The notes beneath the pieces were generated by a model that had not been told where the DNA came from, ran no database searches, and saw only the letters and a program-made list of their open reading frames with translations. Below are positions 601 through 26,130 of a stretch of DNA of 26,130 nucleotides, piece by piece. Source of the stretch: Chlamydiota bacterium. GTDB taxonomy: Bacteria; Auribacterota; JACPWU01. The translations under genes were made by a program, and so were the position numbers. Numbering within the stretch: the stretch's first letter is position 1; each line of letters begins with the position of its first letter. The stretch covers positions 1 through 26,130 of the forward strand of contig JACPWU010000062.1 of assembly GCA_016196885.1 (NCBI GenBank), read 5' to 3'.

Positions 601-3824
<3,224 letters not shown>

Positions 3825-3906
3825 AGGCCGTACTTCGTGCTTCGTGCTGCGTACTTCGTTGTTGACAAACAACGAAGCACGAAGTACGCAGCACGAAGCA
3901 CGGCCT
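3825..3906. terminator. 82-nt imperfect palindrome built from ACGAAGY heptads, filling the gap between convergent ahcY and lptG; probable bidirectional terminator/stabiliser
   Basis: Left arm AGGCCGT ACTTCGT GCTTCGT GCTGCGT ACTTCGT TGTT, loop GACA (3864-3867), right arm AACA ACGAAGC ACGAAGT ACGCAGC ACGAAGC ACGGCCT. It spans from 1 nt after the ahcY stop into the lptG stop codon. There is no U-tract. Confidence 0.55.
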
Positions 3907-4988
3907 TACTTCAACCTCATCATCAGAATCATCCCCAGCCCTCCAAAAATTCCATTCGCAAGCCAGCTTGCCAGAAGAGGCGGGAGATACCCTTGTTTTC
4001 CCAGGGCGCTCAAGGTAAATTGCAGTCCATAGTAGGTCAGGGTGAGGAGAATGGTTTTGCCCAGGACGGGAAGCGCTCCTCCTCGCGTGATGGTAAGTCC
4101 GATGGGGACCACGACGAGCACCAAGATAAAACAGATCCAGGGTGTGGCCAATTTTTCATAAAGTTCGACGCGTTGCGAGGCGGGAATTCTTCCCCCGTAT
4201 TTCTTTGAAAGGGAATTTTTCAATTCTGAATAATTCATTTGTTCGGATGCCTTTTCTTCTCGAATCAGGTCAAGCGGTGATTCATAAATTCGGGTCTTCC
4301 TTTTGTAAAAAACTTCGGGATCATGTGTGATGTCTCCCGTTTCACTGTACCTGACAATGGTTCCATTGAAGAACCACCATTCGTTGTCCAGCCAGCGCCC
4401 TGTCTGGGCGCGGATGAGTTTGTTCATCGTGCCGTCTGGGTTCAAATAATGAACCTGAACATCCTGTGCTATGTTGGTTTTGGGATCCAGTTTATGAATA
4501 AAAAGGGCGTAGTTCTCCAGCGCATTTCCATAGGTTAAATCTTCATACCTTTGAGAATTTTCGTCTGTTTCCTTCTCGGAAAAAATTTTCTTGAAAATTT
4601 CGCTTTGCAATCGCGTTTGAGGAATGACCTCTTCATTCAAATAAAAGAAAAGGGCACTGAGGACCCATCCCAATAAAAGGAATGGGACGGCAATTCTCTT
4701 AGAAGAAATCCCAGCGGCCCTCATGCCGATGATTTCATGATGTCTCGTAAAATTTCCCAAAAGATAAATCAACGCAAGCACGAGAGAAAAAGGACAGATT
4801 TCAATGTAAATGTTAGGAAGCATGAAAAGGTAATAGCGTAAAATGTCCAACCAGGGTACATGTGATTTTAAGAATTCATCCATGTGCTCAAAGAGGTCTG
4901 CGATCAGATAAAGAAGGAAAAGGGTTAGAATACAATAGAAGAAGGGCAGAATAAATTCTCTTAAAATGTAACGATCAATGATTTTCAT
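3906..4988 (-). CDS. lptG: LptF/LptG-family LPS export ABC permease (second gene of pair)
   Basis: 360 aa. The N-terminus MKIIDRYILREFILPFFYCILTLFLL is typical of the YjgP/YjgQ family. It has multiple TM helices with a large periplasmic loop in the middle. The F versus G assignment rests on gene order only. Confidence 0.75.
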   Translation of the reverse strand: MKIIDRYILREFILPFFYCILTLFLLYLIADLFEHMDEFLKSHVPWLDILRYYLFMLPNIYIEICPFSLVLALIYLLGNFTRHHEIIGMRAAGISSKRIAVPFLLLGWVLSALFFYLNEEVIPQTRLQSEIFKKIFSEKETDENSQRYEDLTYGNALENYALFIHKLDPKTNIAQDVQVHYLNPDGTMNKLIRAQTGRWLDNEWWFFNGTIVRYSETGDITHDPEVFYKRKTRIYESPLDLIREEKASEQMNYSELKNSLSKKYGGRIPASQRVELYEKLATPWICFILVLVVVPIGLTITRGGALPVLGKTILLTLTYYGLQFTLSALGKQGYLPPLLASWLANGIFGGLGMILMMRLK

Positions 4989-5053: not shown

Positions 5054-6148
5054 TTACCTTGCCACTTTTCTGAAAAATCCAATCCCAATAATGCCCAGAA
5101 GAATGTTGGGGAGCCACATTAAGAGCTCTGGATGAAATTGGGGTTTCTCGTCAAGTGCCTTTCCAAAGATGATAAAAAGATAATAGAAAAAAACGAGAAG
5201 GAGGCTTAAGGCGACCCCGATGGTTTTTTCACTGCGATGGGCGCGAATGCCTAGAGGGATGCCAATCAATGTAAAGACGAAACAGGAAAAAGAAACTGAA
5301 ATTTTCTTCTGGATTTCTGTCATCAGGGGTGTGACATTGACTCCTTTGCTTTTGTACTCTTTCATTTTTTCTTTGATTTCCGAGAGGGTCATGTCTTTGT
5401 GTTTTTTATCCAGATTTGAAGGGTCTTTTAAAATCTTCCCAGTGTCTAATTTTAAAACGTAACTTCCAAATTGAAGATTGAAAAAATCCTTGAACTCATT
5501 TCCGGTCGGTTCTTGAATGTTGCCATCTTTGAGTTCAAGCGAGATGTGGCCCGTTTTCTCATCGTAAGAAATTTTTCCTTCCCTGGCTGTGATGGTTTTC
5601 ACACGGCCTTCGGCCATGGTTTGATAAATGACGATTTTACGGAGGGTATCCTTTTCTCTCTCTCGAATGTAAATGATGTGATTGGGAAAAATTTCGACAA
5701 AGTTTCCCGGTTCTAAATAGGCCGCAGGGTTCTCGACTCCCATTTGGACAATCAATTTTCGGGCTGCATAATGAGAATAGGGGATGATCTCGTTATTGAG
5801 TTTAAAACAGATCCCTGTGAGCAAAAGCCCGATCAGCCACAAGGGATAGCACAGTTGGAAAAGGGAAACGCCAGAGGCCTTGATGGCCAAAAGCTCATTG
5901 TCTTGGGATAATTTTCCAAAGACGAGAAGAAGCGCGGTGAGAAGTGACAGGGGAATACATGCGGACAAAAAATAGGGGGTCAACAAAAGGAACAAAAGAC
6001 CCATGTCCTTGAGGGGTACTCCCTGGAGGAGAAGCCCGGCGATGTCCTTGATCATGGACCCCATGAAAAGGACAGCGACAAAGACGACAATCCCGATGAA
6101 AAAATTCAGTAGAAAATTTCTTAAAATATAGGCGTGTAGGATTTTCAT
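5054..6148 (-). CDS. lptF: LptF/LptG-family LPS export ABC permease (first gene of pair)
   Basis: 364 aa. MKILHAYILRNFLLNFFIGIVVFVAV... shows the same YjgP/YjgQ architecture. It lies upstream of and on the same strand as 3906-4988. Confidence 0.75.
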   Translation of the reverse strand: MKILHAYILRNFLLNFFIGIVVFVAVLFMGSMIKDIAGLLLQGVPLKDMGLLFLLLTPYFLSACIPLSLLTALLLVFGKLSQDNELLAIKASGVSLFQLCYPLWLIGLLLTGICFKLNNEIIPYSHYAARKLIVQMGVENPAAYLEPGNFVEIFPNHIIYIREREKDTLRKIVIYQTMAEGRVKTITAREGKISYDEKTGHISLELKDGNIQEPTGNEFKDFFNLQFGSYVLKLDTGKILKDPSNLDKKHKDMTLSEIKEKMKEYKSKGVNVTPLMTEIQKKISVSFSCFVFTLIGIPLGIRAHRSEKTIGVALSLLLVFFYYLFIIFGKALDEKPQFHPELLMWLPNILLGIIGIGFFRKVAR

Positions 6149-6301: not shown

Positions 6302-6439
6302 TTTGCTATGAAAGTGAAGCTCATTCTGTAGTCGCCCCATTTATGGGGCTGCCCGATGAATCGGGCGACTACAAAAAAAGCATGATGGGGAGAACTTTCA
6401 TCGCACACGATGATCTCGTAAAGATCATTGAAATTGATA
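6302..6439 (+). repeat. type-B composite repeat, copy 1 (45-nt REPIN-like core 6328-6372)
   Basis: Nearly identical over about 137 nt to 21270-21406. It lies in the divergent lptF/comF intergenic region. Confidence 0.85.
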
Positions 6440-7228: not shown

Positions 7229-7338
7229 ATCAGTCGTGAGTCGTGAGGGGTGAGTCGTGAGTAAAAAAATAATACCTTTAAAACTCACGACTCACGACCG
7301 ACGACTCACAACTGCTTTCAAACTCACGACTCACGACC
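7229..7338. repeat. heptad (GTCGTGA / ACTCACG) inverted-repeat structure with a third, competing arm
   Basis: Left arm is 4 units GTCGTGA GTCGTGA GGGGTGA GTCGTGA (7233-7260). An A/T loop follows. Right arm is ACTCACG ACTCACG ACCGACG ACTCACA (7283-7310). A second right-arm copy, ACTCACG ACTCACG ACC, lies at 7322-7338. Confidence 0.75.
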
Positions 7339-7346
7339 AAAAAGCC

Positions 7347-7374
7347 TTGACACTCTGTCCTCATCGGGTAAAAT
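7347..7374 (+). promoter_or_regulatory. sigma-70-like promoter for gap-pgk-tpiA-secG
   Basis: TTGACA (7347-7352), 16-nt spacer, TAAAAT (7369-7374). The AAAGGAG Shine-Dalgarno at 7397-7403 precedes gap ATG 7412. Confidence 0.55.
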
Positions 7375-7396: not shown

Positions 7397-9683
<2,287 letters not shown>

Positions 9684-9755
9684 ACGTTCAAAAGTTCAAA
9701 GGTGACGCGAAGCGTCATCCTGAGTATCACGAAGGATCTTATCAATAAAGTTTTT

Positions 9756-9893
9756 GGCATATGCACTTGATTCCCCTTAGATAGCAAGCGCCATGGCAAG
9801 AAGTTGTAGTCGCCCCATTCATGGGGCTGTGCCCCTTGCATAGGTTTGCCCGATGAATCGGGCGACTACAAAGGGGAATCAAGTGCATATGCC
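9756..9893 (+). mobile_element. 138-bp MITE with perfect 23-bp TIRs and an 11-bp target-site duplication, carrying a REPIN-like core (9806-9869)
   Basis: The TIRs GGCATATGCACTTGATTCCCCTT (9756-9778) and AAGGGGAATCAAGTGCATATGCC (9871-9893) are exact reverse complements. The direct repeat ATAAAGTTTTT lies at 9745-9755 and 9895-9905. Confidence 0.8.
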
Positions 9894-9910
9894 TATAAAG
9901 TTTTTTACAT

Positions 9911-10666
9911 ATGCGTATTCCCATCATTGCTGGCAATTGGAAAATGAATAAAACGACTGCAGAGGCAGTTACCTTCGTTCAATCCCTGAAAAAAGAATTG
10001 GGTCAGCTAAGCGACCGCCTTTGCGTGATCTGTCCGCCTTTTACCGCTCTTCTTTCTGTCGCTCAAGAGCTAAAGGGAAGCGGGATCGAGTGGGGTGCCC
10101 AGAATCTTTTCTGGGAGACCGAGGGGGCTTTTACGGGCGAGATTTCATCCAGGATGTTGAAGGAGATAGGTGCTTCTTATTGTATTTTGGGGCACTGCGA
10201 ACGCAGGAAAATTTTGAAAGAAACAGATGAAATGGTTCATCGCAAAGTGAAGAAGGCCCTTGCAGAAGGACTTTCACCGATTGTTTGCGTCGGCGAGAGA
10301 TTGGAGGAAAGAGAAAAAGGAATCACGTTTGATGTCATTAAGTCTCAAGTCACACAAGACTTAGAAGGATTGAAAAAAGAGGAGGTTTTGCGCTGTGTTC
10401 TTGCTTATGAACCTGTCTGGGCCATTGGAACAGGTCGAAATGCCACCCCGCTTCAAGCTCAAGAGGTACATGCTTTTATTCGCAAACTTTTGGGGGAGCA
10501 ATTTGGGGAAGAGGCGGCTTCCAAGGTTCGCATTCAATACGGCGGCAGTGTGAAGCCGGACAACATAGATGAATTGATGGCCGAAGACGATGTGGACGGG
10601 GCTTTGGTGGGGGGTGCGAGTCTGGACATAAAATCTTTTGCAAGAATTGTAAATTTTAAGGTATAA
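9911..10666 (+). CDS. tpiA: triosephosphate isomerase
   Basis: MRIPIIAGNWKMN N-terminus, ILGHCERR, AYEPVWAIGTG and YGGSVKP motifs. Confidence 0.95.
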   Translation: MRIPIIAGNWKMNKTTAEAVTFVQSLKKELGQLSDRLCVICPPFTALLSVAQELKGSGIEWGAQNLFWETEGAFTGEISSRMLKEIGASYCILGHCERRKILKETDEMVHRKVKKALAEGLSPIVCVGERLEEREKGITFDVIKSQVTQDLEGLKKEEVLRCVLAYEPVWAIGTGRNATPLQAQEVHAFIRKLLGEQFGEEAASKVRIQYGGSVKPDNIDELMAEDDVDGALVGGASLDIKSFARIVNFKV

Positions 10667-10675
10667 TGCCGCCCT

Positions 10676-11173
10676 ATGACTATTTTTTTGATTGTTCTTC
10701 ATGTGGTTTGTTGCTTGGGTCTCATTGCCATCGTGCTTCTTCAGGCGGGAAAGGGGGCGGGGCTCGCCTCCACCTTTGGAGCGGCAGCGGTGGAAACGGC
10801 CTTGGGCGCGGGGGCCAGTGATTTTCTGAAAACGGGTACCAGTTTGATGGCGATTGTTTTTATGATCACAAGCCTGGCCCTGGCTTTTATGACGGCCCGC
10901 CAAAGTTCTTCCGTGGTGAAAAATGTGAGACCCACGCCTGTGACAACAGAAATTCCGATGGATGTTTCTTCAACGGCTGAGCAAGGTTCAGATGCCTTAA
11001 AGGGTAAATCCAAGGCAGAGTTACAAAATATTTTGAAGCAAATGACGCAAGCCTTGCCTTTGGGAAATAAAACCAAAAGCGATACCTCTACGACGCCTTC
11101 TACGCAAGATGCGGCTGCTCCATCCCATTTGGAAGAAAAAAATCAAGCGGATACTGTTCCCACTCAATCCTAA
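10676..11173 (+). CDS. secG: preprotein translocase subunit SecG with a long low-complexity C-terminal tail
   Basis: Two TM helices with LLQAGKGAGL between them (the SecG signature), in the conserved position after tpiA. About 90 extra S/T/P/Q-rich residues follow. Confidence 0.8.
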   Translation: MTIFLIVLHVVCCLGLIAIVLLQAGKGAGLASTFGAAAVETALGAGASDFLKTGTSLMAIVFMITSLALAFMTARQSSSVVKNVRPTPVTTEIPMDVSSTAEQGSDALKGKSKAELQNILKQMTQALPLGNKTKSDTSTTPSTQDAAAPSHLEEKNQADTVPTQS

Positions 11174-12700: not shown

Positions 12701-12735
12701 ACAGAAGACAGAATTCAGGAGTCAGAATTCAGCAG
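12701..12735 (+). repeat. heptad array ACAGAAG ACAGAAT TCAGGAG TCAGAAT TCAGCAG
   Basis: Five tandem 7-mers that overlap the stop and last four codons of the HAD gene. A same-orientation sister array lies at 13381-13415. Confidence 0.7.
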
Positions 12736-13372
12736 CTTTAAGTAATTCCAGCGGCTTGTGTATCAATTTTTTTGCTCCACTTGCTATTAATTCCTCAGCA
12801 GTTCTAAATCCCCACAAGGCTCCCACAGGAAACATACCGGCTCGGGAAGCTGTCTCCATGTCAATTTTGGTGTCTCCGAGAAAAATAAAATTTTTTGCGT
12901 CCACTTTCATTTTTGAGGCGATTTGAAGAGCAGAAGAAGGATTGGGCTTTTTCGGCATTTCGTCATGGGCCCCTTGAATGACATCAAATTTCCATTTCCC
13001 TAAAAATTTTCGGACAATGAGTTTCGTGAAATCATCTGGCTTATTGGAGAGAATGGCCGTTTTGATTTTTTTTCTTTCCAATTCATCCAGCAATTCTGAA
13101 ATCCCTGGATAGGGATGCGTTTTCTCGGCCCATCGGTGATGGTATTCTTCCCTCATTTGTTTGACGGTTCTGGAAATCATATCAGATTTTCGGTGAATTT
13201 CGGGAAGGGCACTCCAGGCTAAATATTCCACACCTTCTCCCACAAAATCTTTGTAGCTTTCCGTTGGATGAAGGGGCAAGCCAAAAGATTTTAAAACCGT
13301 GTTCATCGAGTCTGCCAAATCGGCCAAGGTGTCGAGCAGTGTTCCGTCAAGATCGAAGAGAATGGCTTTCAT
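12722..13372 (-). CDS. HAD-superfamily hydrolase (phosphoglycolate phosphatase-like)
   Basis: MKAILFDLDGTLLDT (DxDxT motif I), ILSNK (motif II) and LGDTKIDMETA (motif IV-like). Confidence 0.85.
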   Translation of the reverse strand: MKAILFDLDGTLLDTLADLADSMNTVLKSFGLPLHPTESYKDFVGEGVEYLAWSALPEIHRKSDMISRTVKQMREEYHHRWAEKTHPYPGISELLDELERKKIKTAILSNKPDDFTKLIVRKFLGKWKFDVIQGAHDEMPKKPNPSSALQIASKMKVDAKNFIFLGDTKIDMETASRAGMFPVGALWGFRTAEELIASGAKKLIHKPLELLKAAEF

Positions 13373-13380
13373 ACTTAAAT

Positions 13381-13415
13381 ACAGAATACAGAAGACAGAA
13401 GTCAGAAGACAGAAA
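13381..13415 (+). repeat. heptad array ACAGAAT ACAGAAG ACAGAAG TCAGAAG ACAGAAA
   Basis: Five tandem 7-mers starting 9 nt upstream of the HAD start codon (minus strand), so they occupy the expected RBS region. Confidence 0.7.
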
Positions 13416-20683: not shown

Positions 20684-20706
20684 AATTTACCGACAGGTGA
20701 TGATGA

Positions 20707-20851
20707 GAAACGGCCATGACTTTCAGTCACAAGGGGGGATGAAAATCACCCTTGTAGTCGCCCCATTTATGGGGCTGCCCGATGAATCGGGCGACTACAA
20801 TTCATCATAACTTATTGTATAAGAATGAGTAAAGACTATTTTCAGATGAAA
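20707..20851 (+). repeat. type-A composite repeat, copy 2 (45-nt core 20754-20798)
   Basis: Same shells as 372-548. The left-shell hairpin is replaced by a different hairpin, TGACT-TTC-AGTCA (20717-20729). Confidence 0.85.
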
Positions 20852-21269: not shown

Positions 21270-21406
21270 TTTGCTATGAAAGTGAAGCTCACTCTGTAGT
21301 CGCCCCATTTATGGGGCTGCCCGATGAATCGGGCGACTACAAAAAAAGCATGATGGGGAGAACTTTCATCGCACACGATGATCTCGAAAGATCATTGAAA
21401 TTAATA
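21270..21406 (+). repeat. type-B composite repeat, copy 2 (45-nt core 21296-21340)
   Basis: Differs from 6302-6439 at three positions that I can see. Its right end overlaps the moeB-like stop codon (21401-21403). Confidence 0.85.
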
Positions 21407-25905: not shown

Positions 25906-26016
25906 AAAGAATAATGAAATAACTCCCCCAACCCCAGCAAGGGAGGCTGCACTGCTAGTCTCAGTACAAAGCCGACTGCGGTAGTAGATGTTTTTTTACG
26001 TCTGTCCTCTTGTTAT

Positions 26017-26130
26017 GAAACATTCATGCCGACTGAGGTCGGCACAAAGGGGGATGAAAATCACCCTTGTAGTCGCCCCATTTATGGGGCCGTTGCATGG
26101 ACTGCCCGATGAATCGGGCGACTACAAGTC
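26017..26130 (+). repeat. type-A composite repeat, copy 3 (core 26069-26125, 13-nt spacer), truncated by the window end
   Basis: The left shell is identical to copy 1 from GAAACATTCATGCCGACTGAGGTCGGCAC through GTAGTC. Confidence 0.85.

Follow-up and report, generated by a model that had tools for sequence, protein, structure and literature searches.

The gap-pgk-tpiA-secG cluster of an uncultured bacterium holds, in the spacer between pgk and tpiA, a long and nearly symmetrical palindrome, which raises the questions of what kind of DNA it is, how it came to lie there and whether it serves the genes on either side. The DNA analyzed (“the window”) is a complete contig of 26,130 bp from a MAG labelled “Chlamydiae bacterium” at NCBI. 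The initial annotation, made from the sequence of the window, had read the palindrome as a MITE moved by cut-and-paste transposition of the DDE type, with a REPIN-like core. We consider it very probable that positions 9754-9895 are a 142-bp non-autonomous MITE of IS1595-family insertion sequences (IS), carrying a REP doublet as its cargo.

Genomic Setting of the pgk-tpiA Spacer

The element lies in a gap-pgk-tpiA-secG cluster, all four genes of which were confirmed by Pfam: gap (7412-8500), pgk (8481-9683, + strand; PGK, 3.5e-162) upstream of the element, tpiA (9911-10666, + strand; TIM, 3.1e-98) downstream of it, and secG (10676-11173). The start of TpiA (MRIPIIAGNWK) aligns with those of its relatives. 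The nearest relative of the window TpiA, at 73% identity, is encoded in GCA_016178055.1, followed by Omnitrophota proteins at about 63%; the corresponding locus of GCA_016178055.1 (L002) is syntenic with the window from metK to the BT1 transporter, with nucleotide identities in genes of 72-78%.

The pgk-tpiA spacer measures 16 nt in L002 (TTTAAAGGGTTAAGATG) and -1, 113 and 238 nt in three other relatives, the sequences being unrelated. With the nearest TpiA only 73% identical, an empty site exact to the base cannot be read from these relatives, and our empty-site comparison is one of spacer lengths. Two of these relatives have inserts unrelated to the window element (L004, 2639-2876, 238 nt; L007, 5748-5860, 113 nt), that in L007 being a palindrome with 35-nt arms; palindromic DNA seems to have landed repeatedly in the pgk-tpiA spacer of this clade.

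Long hairpins of another kind occupy further intergenic spacers of the window (3824-3907, 7231-7338, 12701-12741 and 13374-13414). In each, a run of degenerate 7-nt tandem repeats precedes its own reverse complement, with heptads that include CGTGCTT/CGTACTT, GTCGTGA and ACAGAAG; in the two corresponding L002 spacers that were compared (ahcY/lptG and lptF/comF), hairpins at 3333-3445 and 5769-5951 use other heptads, GGATTGC and CAAAATN. Also kept in both genomes is a 649-aa protein in which a nucleotidyl-transferase domain is fused to a complete S-adenosylmethionine synthetase (window 601-2550, L002 103-2052).

Ends, Boundaries and Target-Site Duplication

The window has two exact copies of GGCATATGCACTTGATTCCCCTT, at 9756-9778 (+ strand) and 9871-9893 (- strand), which form the perfect 23-bp inverted repeat that had been described; this is the only such pair, with no further copy in the window at up to three mismatches and no match in 100 shuffles. 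The 11-mer ATAAAGTTTTT, which had been taken for the target-site duplication, has exact matches in the window only at 9745-9755 and 9895-9905, and five more variants with one mismatch. The flanks of the element are AT-rich and of low complexity, and the window holds no local tandem array of which the 11-mer could be a part.

Boundaries were set by a family comparison, for which 13 MITE copies and one annotated IS1595 from Legionella were used. The palindrome itself stood up to this comparison, but its limits had to be moved from 9756-9893 to 9754-9895, with the TA...TA ends of the family and a left tip that here reads TT. The terminal repeats are 25 bp long with one mismatch (left-end TT against the consensus TA), the left repeat TTGGCATATGCACTTGATTCCCCTT occupying 9754-9778 on the + strand, where the family consensus starts TA, and the right repeat, which the + strand reads as AAGGGGAATCAAGTGCATATGCCTA, occupying 9871-9895 on the - strand. 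A duplication of the target is likewise present, at 8 bp rather than 11: TAAAGTTT lies at 9746-9753 and, as an exact match, at 9896-9903 (both on the + strand), and the 11-mer is composed of this octamer, the element's terminal A and T, and one T of a T-run. The insertion had originally been taken to end 5 nt before the tpiA ATG; the element stops 15 nt before it, and the right duplication copy 7 nt before it.

With ends defined as TA-GGC...GCC-TA, the 8-bp model gives 8/8 flank matches in 11 of the 13 MITE family copies. Both exceptions, L009 and L052 in MAG JBDRMV01, have flanks that are swapped between two other loci (L059/L096 and L098), the left flank coming from one locus and the right flank from another, and a JGI contig shows the unrearranged order; this reflects either recombination between MITE copies or a chimeric assembly across the repeat. 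A duplication of 10 or 11 bp was also considered and rejected, since the mismatches of the “10-mers” are confined to the outer positions (L036, L087, L106), and since distant IS relatives have 8-bp duplications and a tip 6 nt before TATGCA. Under that longer reading, in these copies, T invariably adjoins the element on its left side and A on its right. The sole ORF across the element (64 aa, opposite strand, 9742-9936) lies within the palindrome and is for that reason judged to be spurious.

The Parent Family and Its MITEs

Scanned exactly against 185,579 representative genomes, the terminal-repeat 20-mer had no match. The 17-mer GGAATCAAGTGCATATG, found both in the window repeat and in a relic with a single end that lies in the gap-pgk spacer of L002, brought up MAG JBDRMV01, with eight loci, besides about 70 chance matches in the representative genomes, and a 19-mer scan of metagenomes added twelve more stretches. 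Some of these matches are the ends of longer elements. At 426-1435 of L089 there is a 1010-bp IS with the same termini and a 304-aa ORF, the product of which matches Pfam DDE_Tnp_IS1595 (PF12762; 4.7e-29) and Zn_ribbon_IS1595 (PF12760; 6.1e-12), as well as NCBIfam NF033547 (196 bits against a cut-off of 75); the end of this IS (TAGGCATATGCACTTGATTCCCCTA) is identical to the left repeat of the window element at 23 of 25 positions. Further full IS copies with the same ends were found at L099-L101, bringing the size range with L089 to 1010-1013 bp, and L093 also has these ends around or beside a transposase gene. Close homologues of the L089 ORF number more than 100, and contigs of about 1 kb hold most of them, the assembly signature expected of a repeated IS.

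The nearest named relatives of this partner transposase are ISRama1 and ISCsp2, at about 50% amino acid identity, and an annotated IS1595 of Legionella antarctica (L110) shows 57% identity to it. The ends of the latter (CAGGGCTATGCAGTTGAC) are homologous to those of the family. An 8-bp target duplication is the norm for the IS1595 family (PMC8101967); clean duplications of this length flank L110 and the more distant IS copies L103 and L106, in all three of which the tip lies the same 6 nt from TATGCA. The full IS copies L089 and L099-L101 are without clean duplications. Judged by sequence, the ends of the pgk-tpiA element are IS1595-family ends, and the parent family can be named. The 26-kb window encodes no transposase of any kind, and blastn of the element against plasmids matched nothing.

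MAG JBDRMV01 and metagenomes from JGI and ENA contain, at unrelated loci, MITEs with the same termini that are noncoding and 119-256 bp long; the family element starts with TAGGCATATGCAC(T/A)TGA(T/A)TC and ends with the complement of this sequence. The element of the window is a single copy in its own 26-kb contig, and the family occupies several unrelated sites across other genomes and metagenomes. The initial annotation had proposed searching the genome with the terminal repeat for a parent IS and for further MITEs, and had named as the adverse outcome a repeat that is unique in the genome and has no related IS; both kinds of partner exist, as the repeat bounds transposase-bearing IS1595 copies in other metagenomes and many MITEs elsewhere. 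The element thus combines terminal repeats, a duplication of fixed length that abuts them, small size, no coding capacity and ends in common with autonomous IS, and the assignment to cut-and-paste, DDE-type MITEs is upheld by these shared ends and by the clean duplications at many of the MITE copies.

The same ends hold other cargo in MAG JBDRMV01 and in JGI sample Ga0180009, namely GGGTCACCTCTATTTT-type hairpins, which are single or nested two to three times and are also found in diverged copies and in another inverted-repeat element. Within the JBDRMV01 MITEs L036, L010 and L059, one GGGTCAC...GTGACCC hairpin lies inside another, and the L059 MITE contains a second element with an inverted repeat (CCTGCATTATTCATA). 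The MITE copy at 3560-3770 of L029, which is without its left end, stands between two copies of a direct repeat (AAAAAAATATTTACCACTCAGGATG...) whose length is 57 bp or more. With REP doublets in the window and these hairpins elsewhere, small palindromic modules recur in IS1595-type MITEs in more than one lineage.

The REP Doublet

Between the left repeat and the core of the element lies a 27-nt internal segment (9779-9805, + strand) without a counterpart on the right side. The core, GTAGTCGCCCC...GGGCGACTAC, spans 9806-9869 on the + strand and is made up of two REP arms separated by a 20-nt spacer (9828-9847): arm 1 (9806-9827) has a GTAG tag and the hairpin GCCCC-ATTCAT-GGGGC, and arm 2 (9848-9869) is inverted, with the hairpin GCCCG-ATGAAT-CGGGC followed by GACTAC. 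Written in general terms, the doublet is GTAGTCGCCCCATT(Y)ATGGGGC with the inverted partner GCCCGATGAATCGGGCGACTAC, the GTAG tags being outermost, and it shows the REP form GTAG-TC-GCCCC-ATTYAT-GGGGC plus partner arm.

There are six doublets in the 26-kb window, all intergenic and all in one orientation, with inter-arm spacers of 1, 13, 20 or 28 nt. Five of them are without the IS1595 terminal repeats; these lie on the + strand at 424-495 (28-nt spacer), 26069-26125 (13-nt spacer) and, in a compact form, 6328-6372, 20754-20798 and 21296-21340. Arm-specific differences recur in most doublets, with small variants in the 424-495 copy, which indicates that the doublet repeats as a unit. The five doublets outside the MITE are not bare: two of them sit within a 120-nt repeat unit (6302-6421, 21270-21389) with an outer inverted repeat of its own (GCTATGAAAGT / ACTTTCATCGC), and three within a unit of about 180 nt (369-548, 20699-20851, 26014-26130) that includes a CATGCCGACTGAGGTCGGCA hairpin, so that the same doublet is found in three different larger repeat contexts. 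Two short-read contigs of the same study, L001 and L003, break at the doublet.

The REPIN-like core that had been proposed is, then, a discrete and repeated doublet, and its Y1/RAYT character is a matter of sequence form. The doublet also multiplies alone in this genome, presumably by means of a RAYT-type Y1 enzyme. Neither the window nor the syntenic 20-kb locus L002 has a Y1_Tnp/RAYT gene. GTAG REPs and REPINs have been reported in the PVC superphylum (PMC3733652; PMC3116915). Scans of viral contigs for the terminal repeat and the REP gave chance coding matches and one single REP only; a single REP unit (GTAGTTGCCCCATTCATGGGGC) stands at 1991-2012 of L111, an IMG/VR contig classed as viral, just upstream of a gene start.

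Terminal Repeats and Doublet as One Lineage

Two mechanistically different mobility signatures had been described as nested in the element, and both are indeed present; they are not, however, a one-off nesting at this site. In another metagenome, L087 holds a complete element: its ends are the same, its internal segment (...ATGGCAAGAA...) is homologous, it contains a variant of the REP doublet (GTAGTTGCC), and an 8-bp duplication (TTAGTAAA) flanks it; the same element also lies at L088 and L097 of that metagenome, giving three composite loci. The one-ended relic in the gap-pgk spacer of L002 is 81% identical over 115 nt to the window element, and the internal segment 9779-9805 aligns with the corresponding segment both in L087 and in this relic. 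Two related genomes have thus received the same MITE family in different spacers of one operon, gap-pgk in L002 and pgk-tpiA in the window. Since the composite is found at L087, L088 and L097 and in the L002 relic, the doublet is no private nested insertion; by these comparisons it belonged to the MITE lineage before that lineage spread, and travelled with it.

A wider proposition, which we regard as possible but doubtful, is that REP doublets riding inside a DDE-mobilized IS1595 MITE gain a mobility independent of RAYT and a route between genomes, and that small palindromic repeats, more generally, have IS1595-type MITEs as their preferred carriers or landing pads. What lies behind this idea is that the same ends enclose REP doublets in two lineages and, in a third, another family of hairpins, which nest within one another, and that the doublet at 26067-26127 of the window is 95% identical to that at 8619-8679 of L002, whereas the syntenic genes are only 72-78% identical. 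REPINs are usually viewed as strictly vertically inherited partners of RAYT; were it true that REP doublets hitch-hike on DDE-mobilized MITEs, the view that they are solely vertical would have to be qualified.

Folding, Transcription and Alternative Explanations

The element had been predicted to be a strongly folding stretch of about 140 nt, and it is far more stable than shuffled controls: the RNA fold of 9684-9925 reaches -101 kcal/mol (z = -8.5), and the DNA fold of the element, 9754-9895, reaches -48.9 kcal/mol (z = -9.6). Upstream of gap there is a likely operon promoter (TTGACA, 16 nt, TAAAAT; 7347-7374, + strand), which is conserved in L002 and was read from the sequence, this region being outside the promoter scan. 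Between pgk and tpiA the scan showed no promoter-like site, and no + strand terminator-like site (a stem and then a U-tract) was found in 9400-10100, which makes it probable that the gap-pgk-tpiA-secG mRNA includes the element.

Such a transcript could suggest that the element was recruited as a functional RNA structure and selected for setting the pgk:tpiA ratio, whether by blocking 3' exonucleases, through processing or by masking the tpiA start. The very stable fold and the probable transcription would suit this explanation, and REP and MITE hairpins can change the stability of adjoining mRNA (PMC3733652; PMC3184786). We nevertheless find it unlikely: the stability follows automatically from the palindromy of the terminal repeats and the REP units, the spacer is not conserved in relatives, the tpiA start region is mostly unpaired in the minimum-energy fold, no terminator-like site is associated with the element, and the pgk-tpiA spacer matched no Rfam family (a single match of 19 bits against a gathering score of 90). 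The absence of a Shine-Dalgarno from tpiA, to which the initial annotation had drawn attention, is genuine but unremarkable, as about half of the window genes are without one (12 of the 23 gene starts inspected); the pre-insertion tpiA site was without one as well.

A likeness between the terminal repeat (CATATGCACTTGATTCCC, 9758-9778) and the tpiA start (CATATGCGTATTCCC, 9908-9925), both with CATATGC...ATTCCC, means that the right repeat could in principle enter into an alternative pairing at that start, which would fit recruitment as RNA. An origin by duplication of the start region, or a riboregulator, was set aside, and we judge the likeness to be coincidental: unrelated genomes conserve the repeat as an IS end, and ATGCGTATTCC is coding and conserved in L002. 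Nothing that we saw points to a dedicated regulatory role; the element may influence mRNA stability passively.

It is very unlikely that the whole 138-142-bp palindrome is an extended REPIN moved as single-stranded DNA by a RAYT-type Y1 enzyme, its outer inverted repeat being just the outermost portion of the REPIN arms and its flanking direct repeat having arisen by chance. The GTAG-plus-hairpin form of the core, present six times in the window, would agree with this, as would the co-repeating outer flanks of the doublet in two other repeat families of the window. Yet the outer repeat of the pgk-tpiA element is common to transposase-bearing IS1595 elements, it also bounds MITEs with unrelated cargo, and the five other doublets of the window are without it. 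Transposition by Y1 enzymes of the IS200/IS605 type leaves no target duplication, whereas fixed 8-bp duplications are seen at 11 of the 13 copies. A local rearrangement or chance palindrome, with an 11-mer drawn from a tandem repeat at the site and without any mobile element, could appeal to the AT-rich, low-complexity flanks and to the five one-mismatch variants of the 11-mer, but is refuted by homologous full-length elements at other loci and in other organisms, with zero terminal-repeat matches expected from shuffles and no tandem array nearby.

An IS1595-Family MITE with a REP Doublet

Speaking against the IS1595-family MITE are the single copy in the 26-kb contig and the lack of a transposase or RAYT gene in the window, which leave mobilization in this genome putative, as well as the absence of the exact 20-mer from the representative genomes, the full IS copies without clean duplications and the left tip TT. 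In the history that we favor, the 25-bp terminal repeats would have served as binding and cleavage sites for an IS1595-type DDE transposase acting in trans, and insertion into an AT-rich site just upstream of tpiA duplicated the 8 bp TAAAGTTT; the allele before insertion is expected to have read ...ATCAATAAAGTTTTTTACATATG. The interior contains no transposase gene but a GTAG-tagged, REPIN-like REP doublet, which the MITE lineage had before it spread. A cognate transposase and a RAYT would both be encoded somewhere in this genome. When transcribed, the element would form a very stable hairpin in the operon mRNA, which may act at most as a passive 3' stabilizer of pgk or as a processing point, and not as a dedicated regulator.

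As an IS1595-family MITE whose cargo is a REP doublet, the element belongs to an ordinary class of mobile DNA. Its value lies in the naming of a parent family for a MITE from a poorly studied, uncultured PVC/Omnitrophota-like lineage, and in exact boundaries (TAGGCATATGCACTTGATTCC ends plus an 8-bp duplication) that annotation pipelines can reuse. One small element joins the signatures of two transposition chemistries, and the combination has spread as a unit. For the host, the insertion would place a hairpin of about 140 nt in a glycolytic operon transcript, where it may affect pgk and tpiA mRNA levels.

Comparison with Known Systems

A 165-bp MITE of Haloquadratum walsbyi, linked to the IS1595-family ISHwa6 (IR 25 bp, DR 8 bp; PMC3852290 Table 4), is alike in being small and noncoding, with repeats of about 25 bp that it shares with an IS1595-family IS and an 8-bp duplication; the window element differs in that it resides in a PVC/Omnitrophota-like MAG, has an unrelated terminal-repeat sequence and encloses a REP doublet. 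Among IS1595-family IS, the partner IS (L089 and others) conform in their length of about 1 kb, in the architecture of a Zn-ribbon with DDE_Tnp_IS1595 and in ends with a TATGCA-TTGA motif 6 nt from the tip, whereas the window element is without a transposase gene and the partner IS were found only in other metagenomes.

GTAG REPs and REPINs have been described previously (Bertels and Rainey, 2011, PMC3116915; Di Nocera et al., 2013, PMC3733652), and the doublets resemble them in the GTAG tag at the 5' end, the short hairpin rich in GC, the inverted doublet arrangement, the high density and the extragenic location; here, in contrast, one doublet lies inside a DDE-type MITE and the rest lie inside other larger repeat units. 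In Anabaena variabilis, GTAG-15 dimers are embedded in long palindromes with the consensus TATAGGAnTnnnATTTGATT..., for which the authors gave no IS-family link and no target duplications (PMC3733652). These palindromes resemble the pgk-tpiA element in having a GTAG REP dimer within a long outer inverted repeat, and the printed consensus, compared by eye, starts with TAGG and has TTGATT at nearly the same spacing as TAGGCATATGCACTTGATT here.
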